From Bacteroidota bacterium (GTDB taxonomy: Bacteria > Bacteroidota > Bacteroidia > Chitinophagales > Chitinophagaceae): 44,468 nt of DNA. Positions 56 through 44,468 of the stretch are shown here, one piece after another. How positions within the stretch are numbered: position 1 is the first letter of the stretch; every line of letters starts with the position of its first letter. The stretch is from contig JBAXVH010000001.1 of NCBI GenBank assembly GCA_037129215.1, positions 1-44,468 on the forward strand, in the 5' to 3' direction. Position numbers and translations under genes: made by a program. The notes under the pieces were generated by a model. It searched no databases and was not told where the DNA came from. It saw only the letters and a list, made by a program, of their open reading frames with translations.

Positions 56-392
56 ACCAGATGTAAGTACAGTGTGCATGGGTCAAGCGGCCAGCGCTGC
101 TGCGTTATTGTTATGTGCCGGCGCACCAGGAAAACGGCTTTGTTTGCCTAATGCACGTGTGATGATTCACCAACCTTTGGGCGGCTACCGAGGTCAGGCG
201 ACAGATATTGAGATTCATGCGCGTGAAACGATGGCCGTCAAGGAACGTTTGAACGCAATCATGGCAAAGCATACAAAGAAAACGACTGACCAAATTATGC
301 GAGATACAGAACGTGATAATTTCATGAATGCGAATCAAGCTTTGGATTATGGATTAATTGATAAAATAATGCATAACCGGAATGCTATCTGA
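1..392 (+). CDS. clpP: ATP-dependent Clp protease proteolytic subunit ClpP, C-terminal part (5'-partial in window; continues from 44197..44413 when the ends are joined)
   Basis: The frame is open from base 3. Translation [37 protein letters not shown]...[22 protein letters not shown]...DTERDNFM matches conserved cellular ClpP blocks, including catalytic Ser (GQAAS), His (MIHQP) and Asp (ERD). 217 nt + 392 nt = 609 nt = 202 aa plus stop. Confidence 0.92.
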
Positions 393-22780: not shown

Positions 22781-24621
22781 TGGGTTCTTTTGATGATTTA
22801 ATTCCTAAACAGCCAGATACAAGTTCTCCTGAAGTTAACACTACTCCAGATAATTCTGTTGCTTCGCCTAAAAATCAATTTCAAGATTTAGTTCCTAAAC
22901 AAGAAGCACAACAAGAGCCAGTACATAATAGTGCTTTTATGTCTGCTATAGACGGCTGGAATAGGGCTTTTGGTAGAACTGCTGAAGGCGGATTACAATT
23001 ATTATCTAATTATCTCCCAGATAAATTTAATAAAGCTGTTACACAATTGAATCAACAAAAAGAAAGAGAATATGCCCAAGATCTTATAGATCATCCAGTA
23101 GCTTCAAAAATAGGGGAGTTTTCAGGATATATTGGACAAGAGGCCTTATTACCAGTAGCTAAAGCTAATCTTGCTACTAAAATAGCATCTTATGCTGCTA
23201 CAGGTGGAACTTTAATGGGGAGTCAATATGGATCTCCAGAACAAAGACAAGAAAGAGGCTTATATGGGGCTGCAATGTCTGGCGTATTTGGGGCTGCAGG
23301 TGAACTAGGCTGGATGGGTGCTAAATCCTTATTAAATTCCACGGCTGAATCTTCTCCAGGTTTATTAAGGAAATTATTCAAACCAGAAGATGCTGCCACA
23401 CAGGAAATTGCTTCTAATATTAGTAATACAACTAATTTAAACAATACGTTAGTTAGAGGACAAGCTGCTGACAGAGTCGGTGTAACATTAACTCCAGGAG
23501 AAACTGTGGGAGGTAATATATTACCTCAGGCAGAGAAAGGATATTTAGTTTCTCAACAAAGTAAACTAGAAGCAGCTAAATATTTAAATGACAGATCTAG
23601 TGTATTAAAAACAAAAGTTAAAGACCTTATAGATAATTTTGTTCCTGAAGGTGATGAAGTAGCTAAAACAACTAAAGCTAAAATGTATGAAGACTTAGCA
23701 CCCTTACAAGCTACTCCTCAAACATCAGAAGCTTTATTAAGTCATCCTGTAATTTCTAATGAACTTCAAGCACTAAATAAAAATCCTTTGATGCCTCAAG
23801 CTTTAAAAGAAATGCCTGATAACAGCGTATTAAAACTTGATGCCGTAAAAAAAGAGATTGATAGTCAATTATATAATAATAAAACATTTTTAAATGGAAA
23901 TGAAAAAACAATATCAGCTTCTGAAAAATCTGTTTTACAAGATGCTAGAGCACAGATTGTTGATAGATTAGATAGTGAATATCCTCAATATGCTCAAGCT
24001 AGGAAAATAGCTGAAAGACTTACATTAAAGAGTCAGATTAATAAAGAATTAGGAATGATTAAACCAGAACCTAGAGCTATAAATGGTGAGGTTACTTTAG
24101 ATCAGATGTATAATAAATTATGGAGCACTCCTGAAAAACAATCTAGATTTATAGAAGCTGTTAAACGTACCGGTGGTAATGACTATCAAGCTTCTGATGT
24201 AATACAAGTATTAAATCAGATTAGACAATCGCCTTTAGAATCATTGCTTAAAGCAAAACCAGAAGGCGTTAATGCAGGTACTTCTATAAGAGGAAATCTT
24301 ATGAATGGATCTGCGACTATCTTTAGTCGTCTTTCAAGTTTCGTAGATGATCTTACACTAGGTAGATATAATAAAGCATTGGTTGATTTAACAATTAATG
24401 GGAAATGGAAACCGGACGTTGCTAAATTAATGTCTAAACCAAATGAACAAACATTATTAATGACATTTAAAAAAGTTTTAGATAAAGTATCTATTGCTGG
24501 TCCTGGTATGTCTGCAAGACGTGTTGCTCATATATTTGATGGTAGTGGTCCACAAGGTTTTACAGATACTTATTTAGCACCGCCAGGTGATTCTTATTTA
24601 GACGACAAGTCTAAAAAGTAG
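22780..24621 (+). CDS. Putative internal virion or ejection protein
   Basis: 613 aa. ATAATG overlap with the upstream gene. Last gene of the rightward operon. Confidence 0.45.
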   Translation: MGSFDDLIPKQPDTSSPEVNTTPDNSVASPKNQFQDLVPKQEAQQEPVHNSAFMSAIDGWNRAFGRTAEGGLQLLSNYLPDKFNKAVTQLNQQKEREYAQDLIDHPVASKIGEFSGYIGQEALLPVAKANLATKIASYAATGGTLMGSQYGSPEQRQERGLYGAAMSGVFGAAGELGWMGAKSLLNSTAESSPGLLRKLFKPEDAATQEIASNISNTTNLNNTLVRGQAADRVGVTLTPGETVGGNILPQAEKGYLVSQQSKLEAAKYLNDRSSVLKTKVKDLIDNFVPEGDEVAKTTKAKMYEDLAPLQATPQTSEALLSHPVISNELQALNKNPLMPQALKEMPDNSVLKLDAVKKEIDSQLYNNKTFLNGNEKTISASEKSVLQDARAQIVDRLDSEYPQYAQARKIAERLTLKSQINKELGMIKPEPRAINGEVTLDQMYNKLWSTPEKQSRFIEAVKRTGGNDYQASDVIQVLNQIRQSPLESLLKAKPEGVNAGTSIRGNLMNGSATIFSRLSSFVDDLTLGRYNKALVDLTINGKWKPDVAKLMSKPNEQTLLMTFKKVLDKVSIAGPGMSARRVAHIFDGSGPQGFTDTYLAPPGDSYLDDKSKK

Positions 24622-24727
24622 TTTCATTATAAACGCACCAGATAACAAGTGCTGCAGTTAAGAAACCTAGTCCCGCTAATGGGACTAGGACACCAATACC
24701 TAAAGCTATCATCATTACAGTTGGCAT
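24611..24727 (-). CDS. Possible 38-aa hydrophobic peptide (MPTVMMIALGIGVLVPLAGLGFLTAALVIWCVYNETTF)
   Basis: AAGGA RBS 7 nt upstream, 3 nt after the ClpX-like stop. However, its centre is also the 9-bp terminator hairpin, so the ORF may be fortuitous. Confidence 0.25.
   Translation of the reverse strand: MPTVMMIALGIGVLVPLAGLGFLTAALVIWCVYNETTF
24660..24692. terminator. Convergence-point hairpin terminator (CCTAGTCCC-gctaat-GGGACTAGG)
   Basis: Perfect 9-bp stem at 24666-24674/24681-24689, between the last + gene and the last - gene. A TTTCTT run follows on the minus strand. Confidence 0.6.
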
Positions 24728-24730
24728 AGT

Positions 24731-25744
24731 TTAGTCCTTTTTATTTGCAATCAAGTCTTTAAGTTCTGCTTCAAAGATTCTAGATTTTGGTTTTGGTTTT
24801 GGTGCTACAACCTCCCATTCGTAATCAAATTCTATTTCTTGAGCCAATTTCAAGACTTCTTTCCTAAGTATTCTAACACCCATCTTAGATTTTACAGCTT
24901 TATTAATTATATCCTCTTCTTCTTTAACAGACAAGGTGAAGTTTGGGCAATTAAAATGTTTCAATTCTTTTCTCATATTTGGAAGAATAAGAGTTCTCAA
25001 TATCTTCTTATAATCAGCCTTTTCCAATTTGTCAAGAGGTACGATATTATGAATACGACCTACTAATTCCGGAAGTAGTCCATATTTAATAACTTCTTGT
25101 TCCAAATCAAATTCATTATTTACTTCATGTACTTCTGTTTTAAAGCCAATAGATCTTTTATTACTTTCTTTACTAAGAGTCATTTTATCAAATGCGCCGG
25201 CAAAGATAAATGAAAGATTGGCCAATTCAGTAGTGTTCTCAAACAGAGATAGAAACCCTGCTTGTACATGTTGGTTCCAACTACCAGTGCTGTCGAATGC
25301 TTTGGCTAGTTTATCTACTTCATCGATAAACACAACCATTTGATCTAGAGCACCATCTTTAGAAAAGTATATTTCTGGCTTTTCTTCTACCAACCTAGAC
25401 GCTTCTTTTTTAAGAGTTTTAATCAGTCTATCAACACTAAATCCATCAGACGCGTTAGTAGGTGCTAATTGGTTGGCATCTATACAAACCAAAGGAAAAT
25501 CACAAATCTTAGACAAAGATTGAACCAAATGGGTTTTACCTGTACCACTATTACCAATCAATAGACAGTTAACATTCTTAACTAAATCGTCCTGAGCTAC
25601 AGGTGTTTCAGCATGCCATATTTGGTGATAACGCATCTTAGAACGATTGACTAGTGTAATCAAAGCCATTTTAGCTGCTTTGTGTCCATATACCACTTGG
25701 TCTAGTTCTTTAAGAATAGTCTCGTTACTTCTAGAGTACAGCAT
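24731..25744 (-). CDS. ClpX-like AAA+ unfoldase lacking the N-terminal zinc-binding domain
   Basis: Walker A GNSGTGKT, Walker B VVFIDEVDK, sensor-1 FIFAGAF, IGF loop RSIGFKT, LLPELVGRI (Arg finger block), MGVRILRKEV (sensor-2 region). ATG at 25744 has an AAGGAA RBS; the track start 25783 is less likely. Confidence 0.8.
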   Translation of the reverse strand: MLYSRSNETILKELDQVVYGHKAAKMALITLVNRSKMRYHQIWHAETPVAQDDLVKNVNCLLIGNSGTGKTHLVQSLSKICDFPLVCIDANQLAPTNASDGFSVDRLIKTLKKEASRLVEEKPEIYFSKDGALDQMVVFIDEVDKLAKAFDSTGSWNQHVQAGFLSLFENTTELANLSFIFAGAFDKMTLSKESNKRSIGFKTEVHEVNNEFDLEQEVIKYGLLPELVGRIHNIVPLDKLEKADYKKILRTLILPNMRKELKHFNCPNFTLSVKEEEDIINKAVKSKMGVRILRKEVLKLAQEIEFDYEWEVVAPKPKPKSRIFEAELKDLIANKKD

Positions 25745-25799
25745 ATCATTTCCTTTTGTTGTATATATTATATATAATAACATATATTTGGAAGAATTG

Positions 25800-26615
25800 C
25801 TAGATGATTTTTAACTCTTTCAAGCGTTTTTTACATGAGCGGAGTTTGTTGAATTGATCAAAAGTATTAATGCCATAACTAAGTGAATCAGAAAGCGTCC
25901 CCATTGTGCTATTAGCCTGCATTAGATGGCCCAGGGTCATCGTTGTACTAAAGTACTCTGGTGCTATGATGAGCAAGGGGATAATCACGCCGAGTTGTCC
26001 GTAGAAGCTCTGGAAGTACTGTAGATGCTTGAGTTTCTTCGCTAGTTTTAGTTGAATGTCAATACATTTACGAAAATTTAATTTTGTCAAGGAATTTCTA
26101 TATGTAGCTTCTAGCATTTGATTTTTATAATTAAGGTGGACTAATGGTGCCCCAATATAATGAGCAATGACAGTGGATAGAATACTATAACCTATTATCC
26201 ATATTAGCCACACAGAATTAAAGTTGAATATGATTGATAAAGAGAATAAGAGAACATACAGGAAAGCCTTAAAAGCACCGCCGCCTAATACAATACATAA
26301 GTTAGGGTAGTCAAAACAATCAGCTTGAATTCTTTGAGAAACGTTTTCTATTTTTGATGTCTTAAATTTATTAGCTAAAGCGCTAAGTTTCTCTCTCCAA
26401 GAAATAGCTGCTCTTGTTCCAAAATAAACACTGGAGGATGTTACAAAACAAAGAACTAGGGTTAATACGGCAAATATACCTAAATAAAAAAAGAATCCAT
26501 GAATATCTTTAGTAGATATTGCATTCCAGAAATGTTCTCTCCAGAATGTCAAGCCTAAGACTAATAATACTTCTAATATATTTACTAGTCCTAGGGCAGT
26601 GAGCCATTTTATCAT
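25800..26615 (-). CDS. Polytopic membrane protein resembling SbmA/BacA-ABCD-type transporter transmembrane domains (short form, no NBD)
   Basis: 271 aa with about 5-6 hydrophobic helices. Blocks ISWREKL, VSQRIQADCFDY, LNYKNQMLEATYRNSL and TMTLGHLMQANSTMGTL...KLRSCKKRLKELK resemble conserved SbmA/BacA blocks as remembered. ATGA-type overlap with the upstream 75-aa gene. Confidence 0.5.
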   Translation of the reverse strand: MIKWLTALGLVNILEVLLVLGLTFWREHFWNAISTKDIHGFFFYLGIFAVLTLVLCFVTSSSVYFGTRAAISWREKLSALANKFKTSKIENVSQRIQADCFDYPNLCIVLGGGAFKAFLYVLLFSLSIIFNFNSVWLIWIIGYSILSTVIAHYIGAPLVHLNYKNQMLEATYRNSLTKLNFRKCIDIQLKLAKKLKHLQYFQSFYGQLGVIIPLLIIAPEYFSTTMTLGHLMQANSTMGTLSDSLSYGINTFDQFNKLRSCKKRLKELKII

Positions 26616-26839
26616 TTGCAGATCCCGACTAATCGTTCGTGCTCTAATTTAGCAATACAATTTAATACACCTTGTTCAAGTCCCTGAGTATAAATATACT
26701 GTAATTGGTCAGAAAGAATCTTTTCACCCTCACTAATAGATGAAGCTGTTTTAATGTCGTCAACTAATGATTCTGCCATTAAATCGAAATAAAAATTCTT
26801 TGATCCTGCCATTAAATCGTAATTTAAATCCTGTTTCAT
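26612..26839 (-). CDS. Hypothetical protein (75 aa) with an internal YDLMAGS/FDLMAES repeat
   Basis: AAGGAG-like RBS (aataaggagtgcttatATG). Overlaps the start of the membrane-protein gene. Confidence 0.55.
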   Translation of the reverse strand: MKQDLNYDLMAGSKNFYFDLMAESLVDDIKTASSISEGEKILSDQLQYIYTQGLEQGVLNCIAKLEHERLVGICK

Positions 26840-26900
26840 ATAAGCACTCCTTATTTATTGACTTTACGGCAGTCTTCACTGCAATACCATAAGTCATTGA

Positions 26901-27119
26901 CTAGTTAACATCCTCTTGTTTACTAATAAATTGTCTATCGTATAATTCTAGTGTGTGTGCTAAATGGTCTATCGTTTGTAAAGCATTAGCAAGTAATATA
27001 GCTTTACCATTTAGAATATCTGCCTTATTATCTGTTACTTCTTCTTGGTAGTAATCTTTAAGTCTTTTTTTGAGTAGTACTACTTCAAATAATATGTAGT
27101 CATAGTTTTCATTATACAT
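26901..27119 (-). CDS. Hypothetical protein (72 aa), first gene of the accessory cassette
   Basis: AGGAG RBS and a consensus promoter directly upstream. Confidence 0.6.
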   Translation of the reverse strand: MYNENYDYILFEVVLLKKRLKDYYQEEVTDNKADILNGKAILLANALQTIDHLAHTLELYDRQFISKQEDVN

Positions 27120-27137
27120 AAATATCTCCTTTTTCTC

Positions 27138-27166
27138 ATTATAATATATTTATAACTATTTGTCAA
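27138..27166 (-). promoter_or_regulatory. Sigma70-type promoter TTGACA-N17-TATAAT
   Basis: The reverse complement reads TTGACAaatagttataaatatatTATAAT. It precedes the RBS and ATG of 26901..27119. Confidence 0.65.
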
Positions 27167-27365
27167 TAACCAATTCTAGTGTGCTATATGCTTTATATAT
27201 AAATGATATGGCAGCTTTTAATGCAAATTTATCTTCAATACTAAGTATCGGAGCACAAGCTAAATACCCTAATTGTCCATTTAACGATTTTAATGAATCT
27301 CGCACAGACTTAATTGAAATGTCATCCTTAATTTCTTCTTCTTTTTTATATAATAAGAAAGTCAT
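27156..27365 (-). CDS. Hypothetical protein (69 aa)
   Basis: ATGA overlap with the upstream gene. Co-oriented small ORF. Confidence 0.5.
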   Translation of the reverse strand: MTFLLYKKEEEIKDDISIKSVRDSLKSLNGQLGYLACAPILSIEDKFALKAAISFIYKAYSTLELVIDK

Positions 27366-27682
27366 ATTAATCCTTCTCCCAACATAGAAAACATAATATA
27401 TTTATCTAACTGATCGCTAAGCCTAGTTTTTAATATAGATTCTAAATTATGATTATTTAGTTTTAAAGAACCAGGATTTTGTATATTTAGTACTAAACCA
27501 AATATCATGTAGCTGTTAATTTTATGAAGGAGCATGGAACCCGCACATGTTATTAATTGGTCGTATGTGTATATAACGCCCCTTCTCTTTTTTAGTTTGT
27601 ATATAGATGAAGGCAGGCATCTAACAGTAAGTTCTTCACGACCCCCTGCCTTGATTTCTACTACATAATACAGCTTAGTCAT
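27362..27682 (-). CDS. Hypothetical protein (106 aa)
   Basis: Start overlaps the stop of the exonuclease gene (translational coupling). Confidence 0.55.
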   Translation of the reverse strand: MTKLYYVVEIKAGGREELTVRCLPSSIYKLKKRRGVIYTYDQLITCAGSMLLHKINSYMIFGLVLNIQNPGSLKLNNHNLESILKTRLSDQLDKYIMFSMLGEGLI

Positions 27683-28569
27683 TATGATAACCTCGTCTTA
27701 CTTGTCATTTTAATAGGTGTTCTACCAGCATAACACATACAGTCTTTACATTGATATGTTTGCCATAAGGTCTTACCTGATGCTTTAGTTCCCCATTTTG
27801 TTAAATTACTTCCATTACAATGTCTACAAGTAATGTCCGTAGCAGAGTTGTAAAGTGTAGCAAGATTTAATTTGGGTTCAAAATGTTTTTTAAGTTTGTT
27901 CCACAGAGTACGAGTATCACATGTATCTTTCTTACCATAGAAACACATCTTATCCATTGCTTTTTTACCAACTTTTAATATATCATCTATAGATGTTCTA
28001 TATTGGTTATTGCATACAGCATTTATACTGACTTCATCTAAGCGTTTATCTTGTAATAATTTTTGAACATCAAAATATCTATCAATATCAATCCAATCTT
28101 GAAGTTCCATTTTAACCTTACCACCTAGGCCTAATTGCGCAGATATATAATCTAACGATTGTGAGGGAAGTCTAAAATATCTCCTCATTTGTTTTTCTAA
28201 GTCGTCTGCGTATTTAGACCAAGACGGATTACCTGGAAGACCTTGCAACATTCTATGTGCATTAAGAATTTTAACGTCAAATCTATCACTATTCTTACCA
28301 ATAGTGTGATCGGCTTTTTCAAGTAATAGATCAAACTCTTTCATCATTTGTTCTGTACCGCCTTCTGGTGTCCATTTAATAATTTGTACAGGGTCATCAT
28401 TCCAGCAATATGTAATACAAATTAATTCCCACATGTTTTTATTAGGAAGTAATTGTTGATGTCGAATATGATTTTCGCCGCAACCCCAGACATAAGCTTG
28501 TAGCGGAAGCGATTCTAAATCATAAAAGAGAATTAAAGGCTTTTTAACACCACCTTGTACTTTATTCAT
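27682..28569 (-). CDS. DEDD/RNase H-fold 3'-5' exonuclease-like protein with a C-terminal zinc ribbon
   Basis: Exo I-like LILFYDLES motif near the N-terminus. C-terminal CRHCNGS...CKDCMC ribbon. 295 aa. Confidence 0.5.
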   Translation of the reverse strand: MNKVQGGVKKPLILFYDLESLPLQAYVWGCGENHIRHQQLLPNKNMWELICITYCWNDDPVQIIKWTPEGGTEQMMKEFDLLLEKADHTIGKNSDRFDVKILNAHRMLQGLPGNPSWSKYADDLEKQMRRYFRLPSQSLDYISAQLGLGGKVKMELQDWIDIDRYFDVQKLLQDKRLDEVSINAVCNNQYRTSIDDILKVGKKAMDKMCFYGKKDTCDTRTLWNKLKKHFEPKLNLATLYNSATDITCRHCNGSNLTKWGTKASGKTLWQTYQCKDCMCYAGRTPIKMTSKTRLS

Positions 28570-28595
28570 TAATTACTCCTAAAAGGATTATTTAT

Positions 28596-28624
28596 AGAAT
28601 ACTATAAAAATTTGTTTGTGTCAA
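28596..28624 (-). promoter_or_regulatory. Sigma70-type promoter TTGACA-N17-TATTCT
   Basis: The reverse complement reads TTGACAcaaacaaatttttatagTATTCT, upstream of 27682..28569. Confidence 0.45.
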
Positions 28625-28626
28625 CA

Positions 28627-28923
28627 TTAATTATTAATAAGGTATTTTAATGTATCTTTGATATGTAAAATATAGTCTTTTAAAAACCCTTTAGATGGTT
28701 TTAAATTTAATTTTTTTCTAAAGACATTTTCTAAAGTTGTTAAAGGGCACTCATCCGGACTAAATATTACTCGTATAACTAAAGCAATAAGAGTTATAGC
28801 GACAAACCACGGTATAAATAAAAAACTAATTAAACAAGTAAGCACAAAACTTAAAAAAGTTACATAATGAAGTAATACAACAAGGCATAAAACTAATTTA
28901 GTTAATTTCATTCTTAATCCCAA
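28627..28923 (-). CDS. Membrane protein, DUF2784-like (CPLTxLEN motif)
   Basis: Two or three TM helices followed by DECPLTTLENVFRKKL. Confidence 0.45.
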   Translation of the reverse strand: MGLRMKLTKLVLCLVVLLHYVTFLSFVLTCLISFLFIPWFVAITLIALVIRVIFSPDECPLTTLENVFRKKLNLKPSKGFLKDYILHIKDTLKYLINN

Positions 28924-29360
28924 AAAAATGGCAAGTGTTTATGTAAATATGTCCAAGCTTCTTTCTGTCTATTTTTCTCTATTTCTTTTACTCTTTTAGA
29001 CGCTACTTCATATAGTTTATCAAAATACTTTTCTGAATGTTTATATGTATGTTTTAATGTATTATTTTGTCTTATAAGTGGATTAATTTTAAATAAATAG
29101 TTTATACTTTTATCATCATAATAGTTATAAGCAGTTTTTAATTTATGTGCTGCATAAATAGCTCTTCTTCCATGCTTTTTACTATTAACACAGTTTCCGT
29201 ATTTAATCATTGTATTTCCTGTAACCTCTAAACTTTTAGAAAATAAATCAATATTATATTGATAATCCCAACATCTAAAATTCCAAGCAGCAGGGATCAT
29301 CCATTTAAGATTGTCTTTAAAAGCTTTAAGATTATAATAAAAATCTATTAATTTTTTCAT
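28914..29360 (-). CDS. Hypothetical protein (148 aa)
   Basis: Its start ATG overlaps the TGA of the upstream 53-aa ORF. Confidence 0.55.
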   Translation of the reverse strand: MKKLIDFYYNLKAFKDNLKWMIPAAWNFRCWDYQYNIDLFSKSLEVTGNTMIKYGNCVNSKKHGRRAIYAAHKLKTAYNYYDDKSINYLFKINPLIRQNNTLKHTYKHSEKYFDKLYEVASKRVKEIEKNRQKEAWTYLHKHLPFFWD

Positions 29361-29518
29361 TGTTTATCTATCCAATTAAATATAGTTCTAAATAATCTAT
29401 AAGTAACATAAAACATTATAAACATTGGTCCTGCTATTGATACTAATAAAACACCATCTGGACCAAATACATTGAGTAGCACTAAAGCTATTATAATAGG
29501 AATTGCTAAATAATTCAT
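29357..29518 (-). CDS. Small two-TM membrane protein (53 aa; not in the ORF track)
   Basis: MNYLAIPIIIALVLLNVFGPDGVLLVSIAGPMFIMFYVTYRLFRTIFNWIDKQ. TAATG overlap with the upstream stop and ATGA overlap with the downstream start fill the gap exactly. Confidence 0.45.
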   Translation of the reverse strand: MNYLAIPIIIALVLLNVFGPDGVLLVSIAGPMFIMFYVTYRLFRTIFNWIDKQ

Positions 29519-29919
29519 TATAGTTTCTCCTTATTCTTTTCATTATACGTTAATTTTTTATGGCAGTCAAGACATAAAATTTCAAATCCATCTTTTTCAC
29601 AGAATAGTCGTTGACAAAATGGTCCAATATCACCAAAACTTTTAAGACTGCCACAGGGAATTATATGATTAACTTCTACATGTGCTCTTATAAACCATTG
29701 TTTACATGTTTTACATGGATATTCCCATTTACTTCTCCCTCCATTCTCTTTAGGTCTTCTAATTTCTGCTAATACTTCATTCTTTGGTCTCCATCGAATA
29801 GACATTCGTCTTAAACCTGAACGTATCCATCCAAAGAAGGCTGCCTCAGTCATCGATCCACCATTAAATGGTCTATCTTTTAATTTTTTCATTCGTCCAC
29901 TTAATCCAACTGTATACAT
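29518..29919 (-). CDS. HNH/zinc-finger nuclease-like protein
   Basis: CKTCKQWF...VEVNHIIPCG...LCLDCHKKLT gives Cys pairs and a His-Asn-His arrangement. The start may lie further downstream. Confidence 0.45.
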   Translation of the reverse strand: MYTVGLSGRMKKLKDRPFNGGSMTEAAFFGWIRSGLRRMSIRWRPKNEVLAEIRRPKENGGRSKWEYPCKTCKQWFIRAHVEVNHIIPCGSLKSFGDIGPFCQRLFCEKDGFEILCLDCHKKLTYNEKNKEKL

Positions 29920-35459: not shown

Positions 35460-35945
35460 TCAATTTTGTTTTACATGACTCCAAATTTCACCTGTCCAAA
35501 TACGATAAATTAAAGAAGAATGAACCTTATATAAAGCTGCAATTTTAGGGCCTGACAACTTTCCTTGATAGTTTCTTATTTCTCTAACTTTAATATCTGT
35601 TAATTTAGAATTAGGCCGAGATTCACCCTTCACTCTTGAACATCTCCCTTTAAGCATCTTATCTCTATTATTATCTGCAACAGTTCCTAAAAATAAATGT
35701 TGCAAATTTAAACATTTAGGATTATCACATTTATGACATACAAGTAATTTTTCTGGTATAGGACCATTGTGTCTAATCCAAACAGCTCGATGTAATAATC
35801 GTGCATAATTATTTCCTACGTATGTTTTACCTACTCTAGCATATCCCCATTCATTAACAACTTTAGTAAATTCTACACAATTATTTTCATTATTTAATAA
35901 AGTATTAGTTTTAATATAATGATCAAATCTACTATGATCTACCAT
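35460..35945 (-). mobile_element. Free-standing HNH homing endonuclease gene between the helicase and polymerase genes
   Basis: 161-aa ORF. GYARVG...HRAVWIRHNGPIPEKLLVCHKCDNPKCLNLQHLFLGTVADNNRD (HNH core) plus a C-terminal HTH (SKLTDIKVREIRNYQGKLSGPKIAALYKVHSSLIYRIWTGEIW). Confidence 0.85.
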
Positions 35946-41904: not shown

Positions 41905-42480
41905 CTATGGAATATAGTAAAATGGATTTGGTAATTTAAATACTTTTTTAGCGTAGCCGCCAAGTAAATCTGATTTTTGATCGCCTATAGAAGCTATTAT
42001 AACATAACCTTGCTGTTCTATTTCCGCTCTTTTTGTTGTTTTAAATGATGACGCTGAAGACAAATCATTTTTATTTCTTAAAATAATTTGCTCATATTGC
42101 TTATATCCTGCAGAATCAAGGGCTTTTACAGTGTTTTTGCGTAATTTCTCTGATCTACCAGAAAGAAAGAATACTTTAATACCTAATTTGATAGCTTTTT
42201 CATATAATTTGAACACAGGTTTAATAGCTGTGCTGTTAATTTTATTTAGTTGCAACTTTACTTGCCAAGGAAGATTAGCAAAGTCATTAGCGTCTATATC
42301 TGCATAATTTGATATAGAAGTTTCGTCAATATCAAGCACAATACATGAATTTTTAATTTTTTTATTATAATTTTGAATAAAAACCATAGCTTTTTTAGCT
42401 ATAACATCAATTTCATCAAAATAAGCACCAGTATTATAATATTCTCTAAGTTTTAACTTAAGTTGTCCAATATTATCCAT
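41905..42480 (-). CDS. HAD-superfamily phosphatase, class B/C acid phosphatase-like, without a signal peptide
   Basis: Motif I VLDIDETSISN (DxDxT), motif II FFLSGRSEK, motif IV IGDQKSDLLGG. Confidence 0.75.
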   Translation of the reverse strand: MDNIGQLKLKLREYYNTGAYFDEIDVIAKKAMVFIQNYNKKIKNSCIVLDIDETSISNYADIDANDFANLPWQVKLQLNKINSTAIKPVFKLYEKAIKLGIKVFFLSGRSEKLRKNTVKALDSAGYKQYEQIILRNKNDLSSASSFKTTKRAEIEQQGYVIIASIGDQKSDLLGGYAKKVFKLPNPFYYIP

Positions 42481-43924: not shown

Positions 43925-44000
43925 GCGCCCGTAGCTCAGTTGGGTAGAGCATTAGCATTGTAGCTGATGGAGGCAGGTTCGAATCCTGCCGGACGCACCA
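43925..44000 (+). tRNA. tRNA-like gene with a non-canonical anticodon arm (closest to tRNA-Thr UGU lacking one loop nucleotide), encoded CCA
   Basis: Acceptor GCGCCCG/CGGACGC (one C:A mismatch), D arm GCTC-AGTTGGGTA-GAGC, T arm GCAGG-TTCGAAT-CCTGC, discriminator A plus CCA. The anticodon stem TTAGC/GCTGA leaves only a 6-nt loop (ATTGTA), or 8 nt if the closing C-G pair opens. Confidence 0.7.
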
Positions 44001-44196: not shown

Positions 44197-44468
44197 ATGG
44201 TAGAGACTGCAGCTAGTCATTTAGTTCCAATGGTCGTTGAACAAACCTCTCGCGGGGAGCGGTCTTACGATATATATTCTCGCTTACTAAAAGAACGTAT
44301 TATCTTCTTATTAGGTCAAGTTGAAGATAATATGGCCAATCTAGTCGTTGCCCAATTGTTATTTCTTGAGTCAGAAAACCCAGAAAAAGATATTTTTCTC
44401 TATATCAATTCACCGGGCGGTGTCGTAACGTCAGGTATGGCTATTTATGATACGATGCAATTTATCAA
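44197..44468 (+). CDS. clpP: ClpP, N-terminal part (3'-partial in window; continues at 1..392)
   Basis: [89 protein letters not shown] matches the conserved cellular ClpP N-terminus. Confidence 0.92.
44414..44468. repeat. Terminal exact repeat, copy 2 (identical to 1..55)
   Basis: See the feature at 1..55. Confidence 0.95.

Follow-up and report, generated by a model that had tools for sequence, protein, structure and literature searches.

The window analysed here (contig JBAXVH010000001.1 of assembly GCA_037129215.1, 44,468 nucleotides) is the complete circular genome of an uncultured phage of about 44.4 kb. It encodes a short AAA+ protein related to the unfoldase ClpX, a membrane protein related to SbmA/BacA in the adjacent gene, and a ClpP peptidase. 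We favour, with moderate confidence, the reading that the AAA+ protein belongs to a ClpXP-like protease of the phage and that the SbmA-like protein is an accessory membrane protein independent of it. Sequences and predicted models established which families the proteins belong to, their architecture and how well their motifs are conserved, that ClpP is present and how the gene neighbourhoods are distributed. A preliminary description of the same DNA had combined the two adjacent genes in a single membrane-tethered device.

The start codon of the AAA+ gene was assigned by comparison with homologues. The mechanically called open reading frame (ORF) has 350 residues; the homologues in clusters P0001 and P0002 begin at its second methionine, giving a protein of 337 residues, and an AAGGA site upstream agrees with this start. 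Searches of PDB sequences with phmmer returned ClpX as the best match (2e-15), followed by HslU (1e-12, N-terminal half), and the Pfam match was AAA_2 at 4.6e-13. The best match in NCBIfam was again ClpX, at scores below the equivalog cut-offs (106.1 bits against 359 for PRK05342 and 81.6 against 370.75 for TIGR00382). The AlphaFold2 model has a predicted local distance difference test score (pLDDT) of 85.6, and the top 50 matches obtained with Foldseek were all ClpX, with template-modelling scores (TM-scores) of about 0.65–0.70. Comparison of the family with canonical ClpX using hhalign gave a probability of 100, E = 2e-47 and 27% identity. Profile, PDB sequence, hhalign and fold searches thus agree with the earlier assignment of a ClpX-like protein that lacks the zinc finger and retains the IGF loop.

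The family comprises about 94 clusters (P0001–P0094) of 305–362 residues, mostly on 30–49-kb contigs of uncultured phages, and is set apart from canonical ClpX by a gap across which the E-values jump from 1e-40 to 1e-17. In a protein-mode search of 50,697 phage records the only relatives of the window protein were 26–28% identical and were located in jumbo phages and unannotated records. No membrane segment was predicted in the AAA+ protein. PADLOC returned only weak matches to it at the level of the P-loop (E of 1e-5 or worse) and none to the SbmA-like protein or to the two small proteins encoded upstream (p72 and p75), which gives no membership of a defence system.

The intervals between the motifs were measured over the family and in canonical ClpX. 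The family medians are 62 residues from the N-terminus to Walker A (100–182 in canonical ClpX), 65 from Walker A to Walker B (53), 33 from Walker B to the sensor-1 strand (53–56) and 39 from sensor-1 to the Arg-finger block (47–49). The short N-terminal segment implies that the zinc finger is missing: no Pfam match to the C4 zinc-binding domain (zf-C4_ClpX) was found and the first 60 residues contain no CxxC; two CxxC motifs are present in most of the canonical ClpX sequences that were checked. The short segment between Walker B and sensor-1 implies deletion of the RKH hairpin, opposite which hhalign places a 19-column gap in the phage family; the shortened RKH/pore-2 region had been recognized correctly in the preliminary description. 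No match to the C-terminal ClpX domain (PF10431) was present for this protein in the precomputed Pfam annotations.

The ATPase machinery is strictly conserved. In a 48-sequence alignment (A1) the invariant positions include S66, G67, G69, K70 and T71 of Walker A, D141, E142, D144 and K145 of Walker B, G229-R230 of the Arg finger, R291 of sensor-2 and the loop glycine G200. The motifs PELVGR (Arg finger) and GVRxL (sensor-2) are invariant or nearly so in the family. Residues I199-G200-F201, within RSIGFKT, were aligned with the IGF loop of ClpX by both phmmer and hhalign. Over 92 family members the first residue of this tripeptide is Ile in 75, Leu in ten and Met in four, the glycine is present in all 92 and the phenylalanine in 90. 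The flanks are otherwise unconserved and the segment is low in pLDDT; a conserved tripeptide within a flexible, unconserved loop is the signature of a ClpP-docking loop.

The pore-1 loop had been read as GFSV in place of GYVG. The canonical GYVG is indeed absent, but the register was different: in the phmmer, MAFFT and hhalign alignments A98-S99 lies under Y-V of GYVG and G101 under its last glycine, so that A98 occupies the tyrosine position and F102 lies one position past the motif. The tyrosine column is filled by Ala (60 of 92 members), Asn (12), Gly (ten), Ser (eight) or Arg (two). The residue after the next glycine, F102 in the window, is hydrophobic in 82 of the 92 (34 Ile, 19 Val, nine Leu, eight Phe, six Tyr and six Met). 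Judged from these alignments, the classical pore-1 tyrosine is lost and is replaced by a shifted, mostly aliphatic residue. On its sequence the protein is classed as ClpX-like rather than as ClpX: the AAA+ module and the IGF loop are present, and the zinc finger, the GYVG tyrosine, the RKH loop and an equivalog-level score are not.

Bases 1–55 and 44414–44468 of the window are identical, which indicates a circular assembly (or a terminally redundant genome) of about 44.4 kb, and the ClpP gene spans this junction, 19 kb from the AAA+ gene. The preliminary description had counted on a ClpP encoded in this genome, and one was found: the full-length protein has 202 residues and matches Pfam CLP_protease at 2e-55. 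Its AAS, MIHQP and DTERD blocks match the corresponding blocks of Escherichia coli ClpP, and it is 64–77% identical to ClpP of diverse, mostly gammaproteobacterial and betaproteobacterial genomes. By this comparison it is a canonical, cytoplasmic-type ClpP of gammaproteobacterial kind, and its identity suggests a proteobacterial, probably gammaproteobacterial, host for the phage. The G+C content of the ClpP gene is 42.4%, against 33.4% for the genome. A gammaproteobacterial host may have donated the gene more recently, or the amino-acid sequence may be under strong constraint; the difference fits either case. The AAA+ and SbmA-like genes have G+C contents of 34–35%, typical of the phage; this similarity suggests long residence in the phage.

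In the protease reading, the AAA+ protein would be a minimal ring ATPase of the ClpX family, approximating ClpX without its N-domain, lacking the RKH hairpin and having a remodelled pore-1 loop. It would form a hexamer and dock through its IGF loops on a ClpP tetradecamer, either that of the phage or, in relatives without their own, that of the host. ClpX uses the RKH loop for recognition of the ssrA tag, and its N-domain binds adaptors. Because the phage protein has neither the adaptor-binding N-domain nor the RKH loop, it would be expected to feed ClpP with substrates other than those of host ClpX, so retargeting proteolysis during infection. The SbmA-like protein would be a separate accessory of the inner membrane, probably a homodimeric six-helix core of the SLiPT/YddA type that serves as a pathway for a solute or peptide. 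Its place beside the AAA+ gene would have been inherited within a single subclade and would not reflect complex formation.

Several observations weigh against this reading. With the pore-1 tyrosine lost, processive unfolding is not assured. Neighbourhoods were compared in about 20 distinct related genomes (loci designated by L numbers) with flanks of at most 10 kb, and the ClpP content of the genomes of the AAA+ family was viewed only within these flanks. A point in favour of the reading is that in distant relatives the AAA+ gene comes straight after protease genes: the order is M48 peptidase, Clp-protease-family gene, AAA+ in L006, with 24 further similar places, and M48, AAA+ in L171 and L251. 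The Clp protease of L006 is, however, a divergent one with a hydrophobic stretch at its N-terminus, and the M48 peptidases have signal or anchor segments, so these neighbours may lie outside the cytoplasm, where they would not serve a cytosolic ring as partners. A tblastn search of the window with the L006 Clp-protease-like protein gave no match; the ClpP of the window is of another, canonical type. Finally, the SbmA-like and AAA+ genes co-occur in about half of the sampled loci and, within the subclade described below, a gene for a hydrophobic peptide always follows the AAA+ gene, so that the ring may have some less direct functional tie to the membrane.

The same motif pattern bears on a different use of the IGF loop, which we regard as unlikely: the AAA+ protein might be a ClpP-capping decoy or regulator that docks on host ClpP and blocks ClpXP and ClpAP, for example protecting phage proteins, or it might be a ClpP-independent remodeller. 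A passive cap would have no use for ATP hydrolysis, yet selection seems to maintain it, as Walker A, Walker B, the Arg finger and sensor-2 are all invariant or nearly so; a hydrophobic pore-1 residue is also kept in most members. What a cap would account for is the loss of the pore-1 tyrosine, the RKH hairpin and the N-domain together with an invariant IGF loop. No Clp-protease gene was found in the sampled flanks of L007–L009 and L250–L252, where host ClpP would then be the target; the window genome, however, encodes a ClpP itself, and a phage with an inhibitor of ClpP would hardly be expected to do so.

The membrane protein was matched in Pfam to SbmA_BacA with 71.7 bits (gathering cut-off 24) and to ABC_membrane_2 with 63.5 bits. 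Among PDB sequences SbmA and Rv1819c were found at about 1e-8, in an alignment that begins at SbmA residue 130. The NCBIfam score was 55 bits against an SbmA equivalog cut-off of 492, and PRK12369 was likewise well under its cut-off. The AlphaFold2 model (pLDDT 88) consists of six long helices with short intracellular loops. SbmA was its best Foldseek match (TM-score 0.84–0.85, root-mean-square deviation about 3 Å), Rv1819c scored 0.82 and ABCD1/3 were also matched. As described in PMC8442886, SbmA has eight helices per protomer, the two extra helices forming the TM0 domain (TM0a/0b) that is characteristic of SbmA/BacA. Both the model and the start of the alignment indicate that the phage protein has the six-helix core only, with no TM0. 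No nucleotide-binding domain was found in the protein by Pfam, and no ABC ATPase among the window ORFs scanned or the neighbouring genes of related loci. The earlier description of an SbmA/BacA-like protein without such a domain is therefore sustained.

In the 42-member phage family the equivalents of SbmA R190, D194, Q273, R280 and R385 are invariant, that of E276 is kept in 41 members and that of Y368 in 36. The glutamate ladder that serves proton coupling in SbmA includes E193, E203 and E378 besides E276: at the position of E193, 32 of the 42 members have Glu but the window protein has Ala, the position of E203 is hydrophobic and that of E378 is Lys or Arg. The cytoplasmic-gate loop of SbmA (Y285/E287/D288) is deleted. 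The family was collected as 55 clusters (P0121–P0175), nearly all of about 271 residues and mostly on 30–47-kb contigs. A protein-mode search of the phage records above gave three weak matches, and no relative turned up when the family pattern was run against 185,579 species genomes, which leaves no prophage or host clue from this protein.

A second, more distant SbmA-like family was observed on about 68 IMG/VR viral contigs (L182–L248), with proteins of about 340 residues that are 24–28% identical to the window protein; SbmA-like genes therefore seem to be widespread in environmental viral contigs. In L242–L244 a ClpP gene is located 3.7 kb downstream of the distant SbmA-like gene. L178 (6618–7802) and L180 (5149–6342) contain a longer (394–397 residues) and more distant ClpX-like gene, 2–3.6 kb upstream of an SbmA-like gene.

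The features of the membrane protein were also considered in terms of its energy source. There is a small chance that it forms only the transmembrane half (of YddA type) of a divided ABC transporter and depends on a host nucleotide-binding subunit, and is not a proton-driven SLiPT. Such an arrangement would be compatible with the protease reading, as it concerns only the energy source of the membrane protein. The ABC_membrane_2 match, the presence of Rv1819c and ABCD1/3 among the fold matches and the partial glutamate ladder (E276 kept, E193 replaced by Ala in the window, E203 and E378 hydrophobic or basic) are consistent with it, and in some organisms the transmembrane and ABC parts of YddA are encoded by two genes (PMC12912959). 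SbmA_BacA is nevertheless the better match in both Pfam and fold, the intracellular loops of the model are short, and neither the scanned ORFs of the window nor the genes adjoining the SbmA-like gene at any locus included an ABC ATPase.

The conservation of the gene pair was then surveyed. The SbmA-like gene directly precedes the AAA+ gene in five of the six lineages of one subclade, defined by AAA+ identities of at least 59% (the window with L001, L002/3, L087, L253 and L254), and in none of the more distant genomes examined (L171, L176, L251, L252 and L088 among them); the adjacency noted earlier thus holds within the subclade and does not extend beyond it. The order in the subclade is p75-like gene, SbmA-like gene, AAA+ gene, small hydrophobic ORF; L253 lacks a detected p75-like ORF, and the SbmA-like protein of L254 is only 44% identical to that of the window. 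Clusters P0006 and P0125, both listed with a longest contig of 2,709 bp, may, judged by this shared length, represent a sixth adjacent case. The exception in the subclade is L004/5, in which the hydrophobic ORF is kept but the p75-like gene is followed directly by the AAA+ gene, the SbmA-like gene being absent from that slot. Members of the subclade also share the remaining early gene order, so that the adjacency there adds little information.

Elsewhere the two genes are apart or alone. The AAA+ gene of L250 is at the same genome position, with no SbmA-like gene in the 7.5 kb upstream. In L171 and L251, where M48 precedes AAA+, the SbmA-like gene is 7.5–8.1 kb away; in L252 it is 9 kb from the AAA+ gene. 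In L176 an SbmA-like gene is followed by M48, and the AAA+ gene is 3.2 kb away on the other strand. An SbmA-like gene without an AAA+ gene in the flanks was found in L088, L172–L175, L177, L181 and L089, and the reverse in L006–L009. Both genes are present in the same genome in at least nine of the distinct loci. From this distribution we infer that they are common, independently placed members of the accessory gene pool of this phage group, and their adjacency in the window would then be inherited synteny.

This distribution weighs against the membrane-tethered coupled device of the preliminary description, which is now distinctly unlikely. Under that proposal, to which the small hydrophobic peptide may be added, the SbmA-like protein would anchor the ClpX-like ring at the inner membrane or work with it there, as one device to extract, translocate or degrade proteins or peptides (e.g. 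importing and destroying peptides, or extracting membrane proteins). The two genes are 3–9 kb apart wherever the order has been reshuffled (L171, L176, L251 and L252), once on opposite strands; L004/5 retains the p75-like gene, the AAA+ gene and the hydrophobic ORF without an SbmA-like gene between them; many genomes have one gene and not the other within the flanks; and the conserved early gene order makes the adjacency in the subclade little informative. The AAA+ protein is also without a predicted membrane segment, and PMC8442886 describes SbmA-type proteins as lacking the coupling helices that are used by ATPase partners. In support of coupling, the adjacency, shared direction and tight spacing persist in five lineages despite identities down to 44% (SbmA-like) and 59% (AAA+), each of the five has a small hydrophobic ORF after the AAA+ gene, both genes share a genome at nine or more of the roughly 20 loci, and both recur near M48 peptidase genes. 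The coupled transporter–unfoldase machine, the most striking of the earlier claims, is nevertheless unsupported by comparative genomics. A fuller version, in which p75, the SbmA-like protein, the ClpX-like protein and the hydrophobic peptide constitute a phage system for import and destruction or for membrane-anchored proteolysis (the SbmA core importing peptides or presenting membrane substrates, the 38-residue peptide recruiting the ring, p75 acting as an adaptor and the phage ClpP being fed), is very unlikely; if it were true, the recurrent association of SbmA-like, ClpX-like, ClpP and M48 genes would reflect one shared peptide or proteostasis function.

The two genes lie in a run on the minus strand in the order p72, p75, SbmA-like, AAA+ and a 38-residue hydrophobic ORF. 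The coordinates of these and the other features are presented in Table 1. The consensus promoter and ribosome-binding site described previously at the head of the run were confirmed; the AAGGAG site is 7 nt ahead of the p72 ATG (27119). The promoter is in the same place in L001 and has one mismatch in L002. Near-consensus promoters (at most one mismatch, 17-nt spacer) occur ten times in the window against 1.29 expected, with eight of the ten on the minus strand, and the phage thus appears to drive the leftward array from host sigma-70 promoters. This array is about 18 kb of co-directional early and replication genes. The run had been described as a self-contained cassette, a view that was abandoned: the promoter overlaps the 3' end of the preceding ORF of the array, and a scan of 24300–29700 found no terminator-like site upstream of it, so that the run is a sub-operon at the far end of the array.

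All four ORFs noted in the preliminary description are real, and a fifth gene, the conserved 38-residue hydrophobic ORF, had been overlooked. The 9-bp hairpin that had been placed at the end of the run exists and sits at the meeting point of the leftward and rightward arrays, but it lies inside this conserved ORF. It is kept in L001 with one G–U pair and is degraded in L002 (five of seven pairs, by eye), although the peptide is conserved there. Its role as a clean operon terminator was accordingly downgraded.

Homologues of p72 were found in L001 (2e-39) and L002/L003 (2e-20), and no match to p72 was found in Pfam, PHROG, NCBIfam or PADLOC. The end of p75 overlaps the start of the SbmA-like gene, which suggests translational coupling; the spacer between the SbmA-like and AAA+ genes is 55 nt and contains the AAGGA site. 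In L002, L087 and L254 a p75 homologue is encoded by the gene immediately before the SbmA-like one, and in L004/L005, in which that slot holds no SbmA-like gene, by the gene immediately before AAA+; none was detected upstream of the SbmA-like gene in L253. The p75 of the window has a 13-residue insertion (26770–26815, minus strand) relative to the homologues in L002, L087 and L005; it resembles a local duplication (DLMAGSKNFYF / DLMAESL) and was unreported by Tandem Repeats Finder at a score of 30. The 38-residue peptide is conserved after the AAA+ gene in L001, L002/3 and L087 (hidden Markov model E-values 5e-16 to 2e-23), and hydrophobic ORFs of 66 and 36 residues occupy the same slot in L253 and L254, respectively.

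Table 1. Positions of features in the window (nt, nucleotides; aa, amino acids).
Feature	Position	Strand	Basis or remark
ClpP, 5' part	44197..44468	+	Gene spans circular junction
ClpP, 3' part	56-392	+	Continues past 55-bp terminal overlap
ClpX-like AAA+ ATPase, minimal, 337 aa	24731-25744	-	Homology, fold, motifs
SbmA/BacA-like (SLiPT-core) membrane protein, 271 aa	25800-26615	-	Pfam, PDB sequence matches, fold
p75, acidic helical protein, 75 aa	26612-26839	-	ORF; 4-nt overlap with SbmA-like start
p72, 72 aa	26901-27119	-	ORF; AAGGAG site
Hydrophobic ORF, 38 aa (MPTVMMIALGIGVLVPLAGLGFLTAALVIWCVYNETTF)	24611-24727	-	Starts 3 nt past AAA+ stop; 11-nt overlap with end of convergent 613-aa structural gene
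Sigma-70 consensus promoter TTGACA-N17-TATAAT	27138..27166	-	12/12 match; overlaps last codons of upstream 69-aa ORF
Hairpin CCTAGTCCC-ATTAGC-GGGACTAGG	24666..24689	-	9 pairs (6 G-C), tail TTTCTT; terminator-like; inside 38-aa ORF
M48-type zinc peptidase (HExxH), small, N-terminal signal or anchor segment	716-1150	+	Sequence motifs; one M48 follows ClpP in the window genome
M48-type zinc peptidase (HExxH), small, N-terminal signal or anchor segment	37363-37947	-	Sequence motifs
HNH endonuclease	35460-35945	-	Between helicase and DNA polymerase genes; same placement in L251
HAD-superfamily class B acid phosphatase	41905-42480	-	Pfam Acid_phosphat_B 5e-41; start of early array
tRNA-Tyr (GTA anticodon)	43925-44000	+	Just upstream of ClpP, in divergent region between early and late arrays

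Other genes of the genome encode PhoH, a family A DNA polymerase, a primase/helicase and a terminase; a capsid protein, an SU10-type adaptor and a lysozyme are also encoded. The HNH endonuclease is probably a homing endonuclease, and the HAD acid phosphatase is, as an accessory gene, unusual in a phage of about 44 kb. M48 genes recur beside the ClpX-like gene in some related phages and beside the SbmA-like gene in others (L006, L088, L171–L177, L251 and L252). A split FtsH-like protease composed of an M48 peptidase and the AAA+ protein was considered and was ruled out, as the M48 proteins of the window carry signal or anchor sequences and are probably extracytoplasmic. A blastn search of the phage records with the AAA+/SbmA-like region gave no DNA match, and the phage DNA polymerase was at most 29% identical to any record in protein mode; judged by these searches there is no closely related cultured phage.

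Full-text literature searches returned no paper describing the short ClpX-like family or a phage-encoded SbmA-like protein, nor any on a phage module that pairs a transporter-like protein with an unfoldase, in agreement with the preliminary description. The best-matching PHROGs family, phrog_4339, is listed there as of unknown function. ClpX is among the best-studied unfolding motors; the zinc-binding N-domain, the RKH loops and the GYVG tyrosine count as key elements by which it recognizes and grips substrates. The phage family, with at least 94 clusters, has dropped all three and yet strictly keeps the ATPase machinery and the IGF tripeptide, and it belongs to small (about 40 kb) and not to jumbo phages. 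If the AAA+ protein drives ClpP, it would show how little of ClpX suffices for a working degradation motor and would point to a phage strategy in which a private specificity factor, sometimes with a private ClpP, reprogrammes host proteolysis.

Compared with known systems, the AAA+ protein is closest to ClpX and to the engineered ClpX-ΔN, with which it shares the fold of the large and small domains, Walker A and B, PELVGR, GVRxL and the IGF tripeptide. It begins about where ClpX-ΔN begins, and ClpP is encoded in the same genome. It differs from ClpX (about 27% identity) in having about 21 fewer residues between Walker B and sensor-1, in 12 inserted residues between Walker A and Walker B, in an IGF loop about nine residues shorter and in the replacement of GYVG by a loop of the type G-A-S-G-G-(I/V/L/F). 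HslU has an I-domain and no IGF loop. It is the second-best sequence relative of the phage protein, but ClpX was first in every search, and the phage protein possesses the IGF loop and contains no I-domain-sized insertion. The short family is absent from the isolated phages of the 50,697-record collection. The ClpX homologues of jumbo phages (Agrobacterium phage Atu_ph07, Bacillus phage G, Lak phages and Salicola phage SCTP-2) are also phage-encoded, and some are annotated as Clp protease ATP-binding subunit; they are 26–28% identical to the window protein and come from genomes of 440–640 kb. The SbmA-like protein shares the six-helix core of SbmA/BacA and of the Rv1819c/YddA transmembrane domains, and differs in lacking TM0, the gate loop and the acidic character at E203 and E378 and in being phage-encoded. 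This TM0-less family extends the known distribution of SLiPT-type proteins to phages and offers a minimal core for probing the contributions of TM0 and the glutamate ladder.

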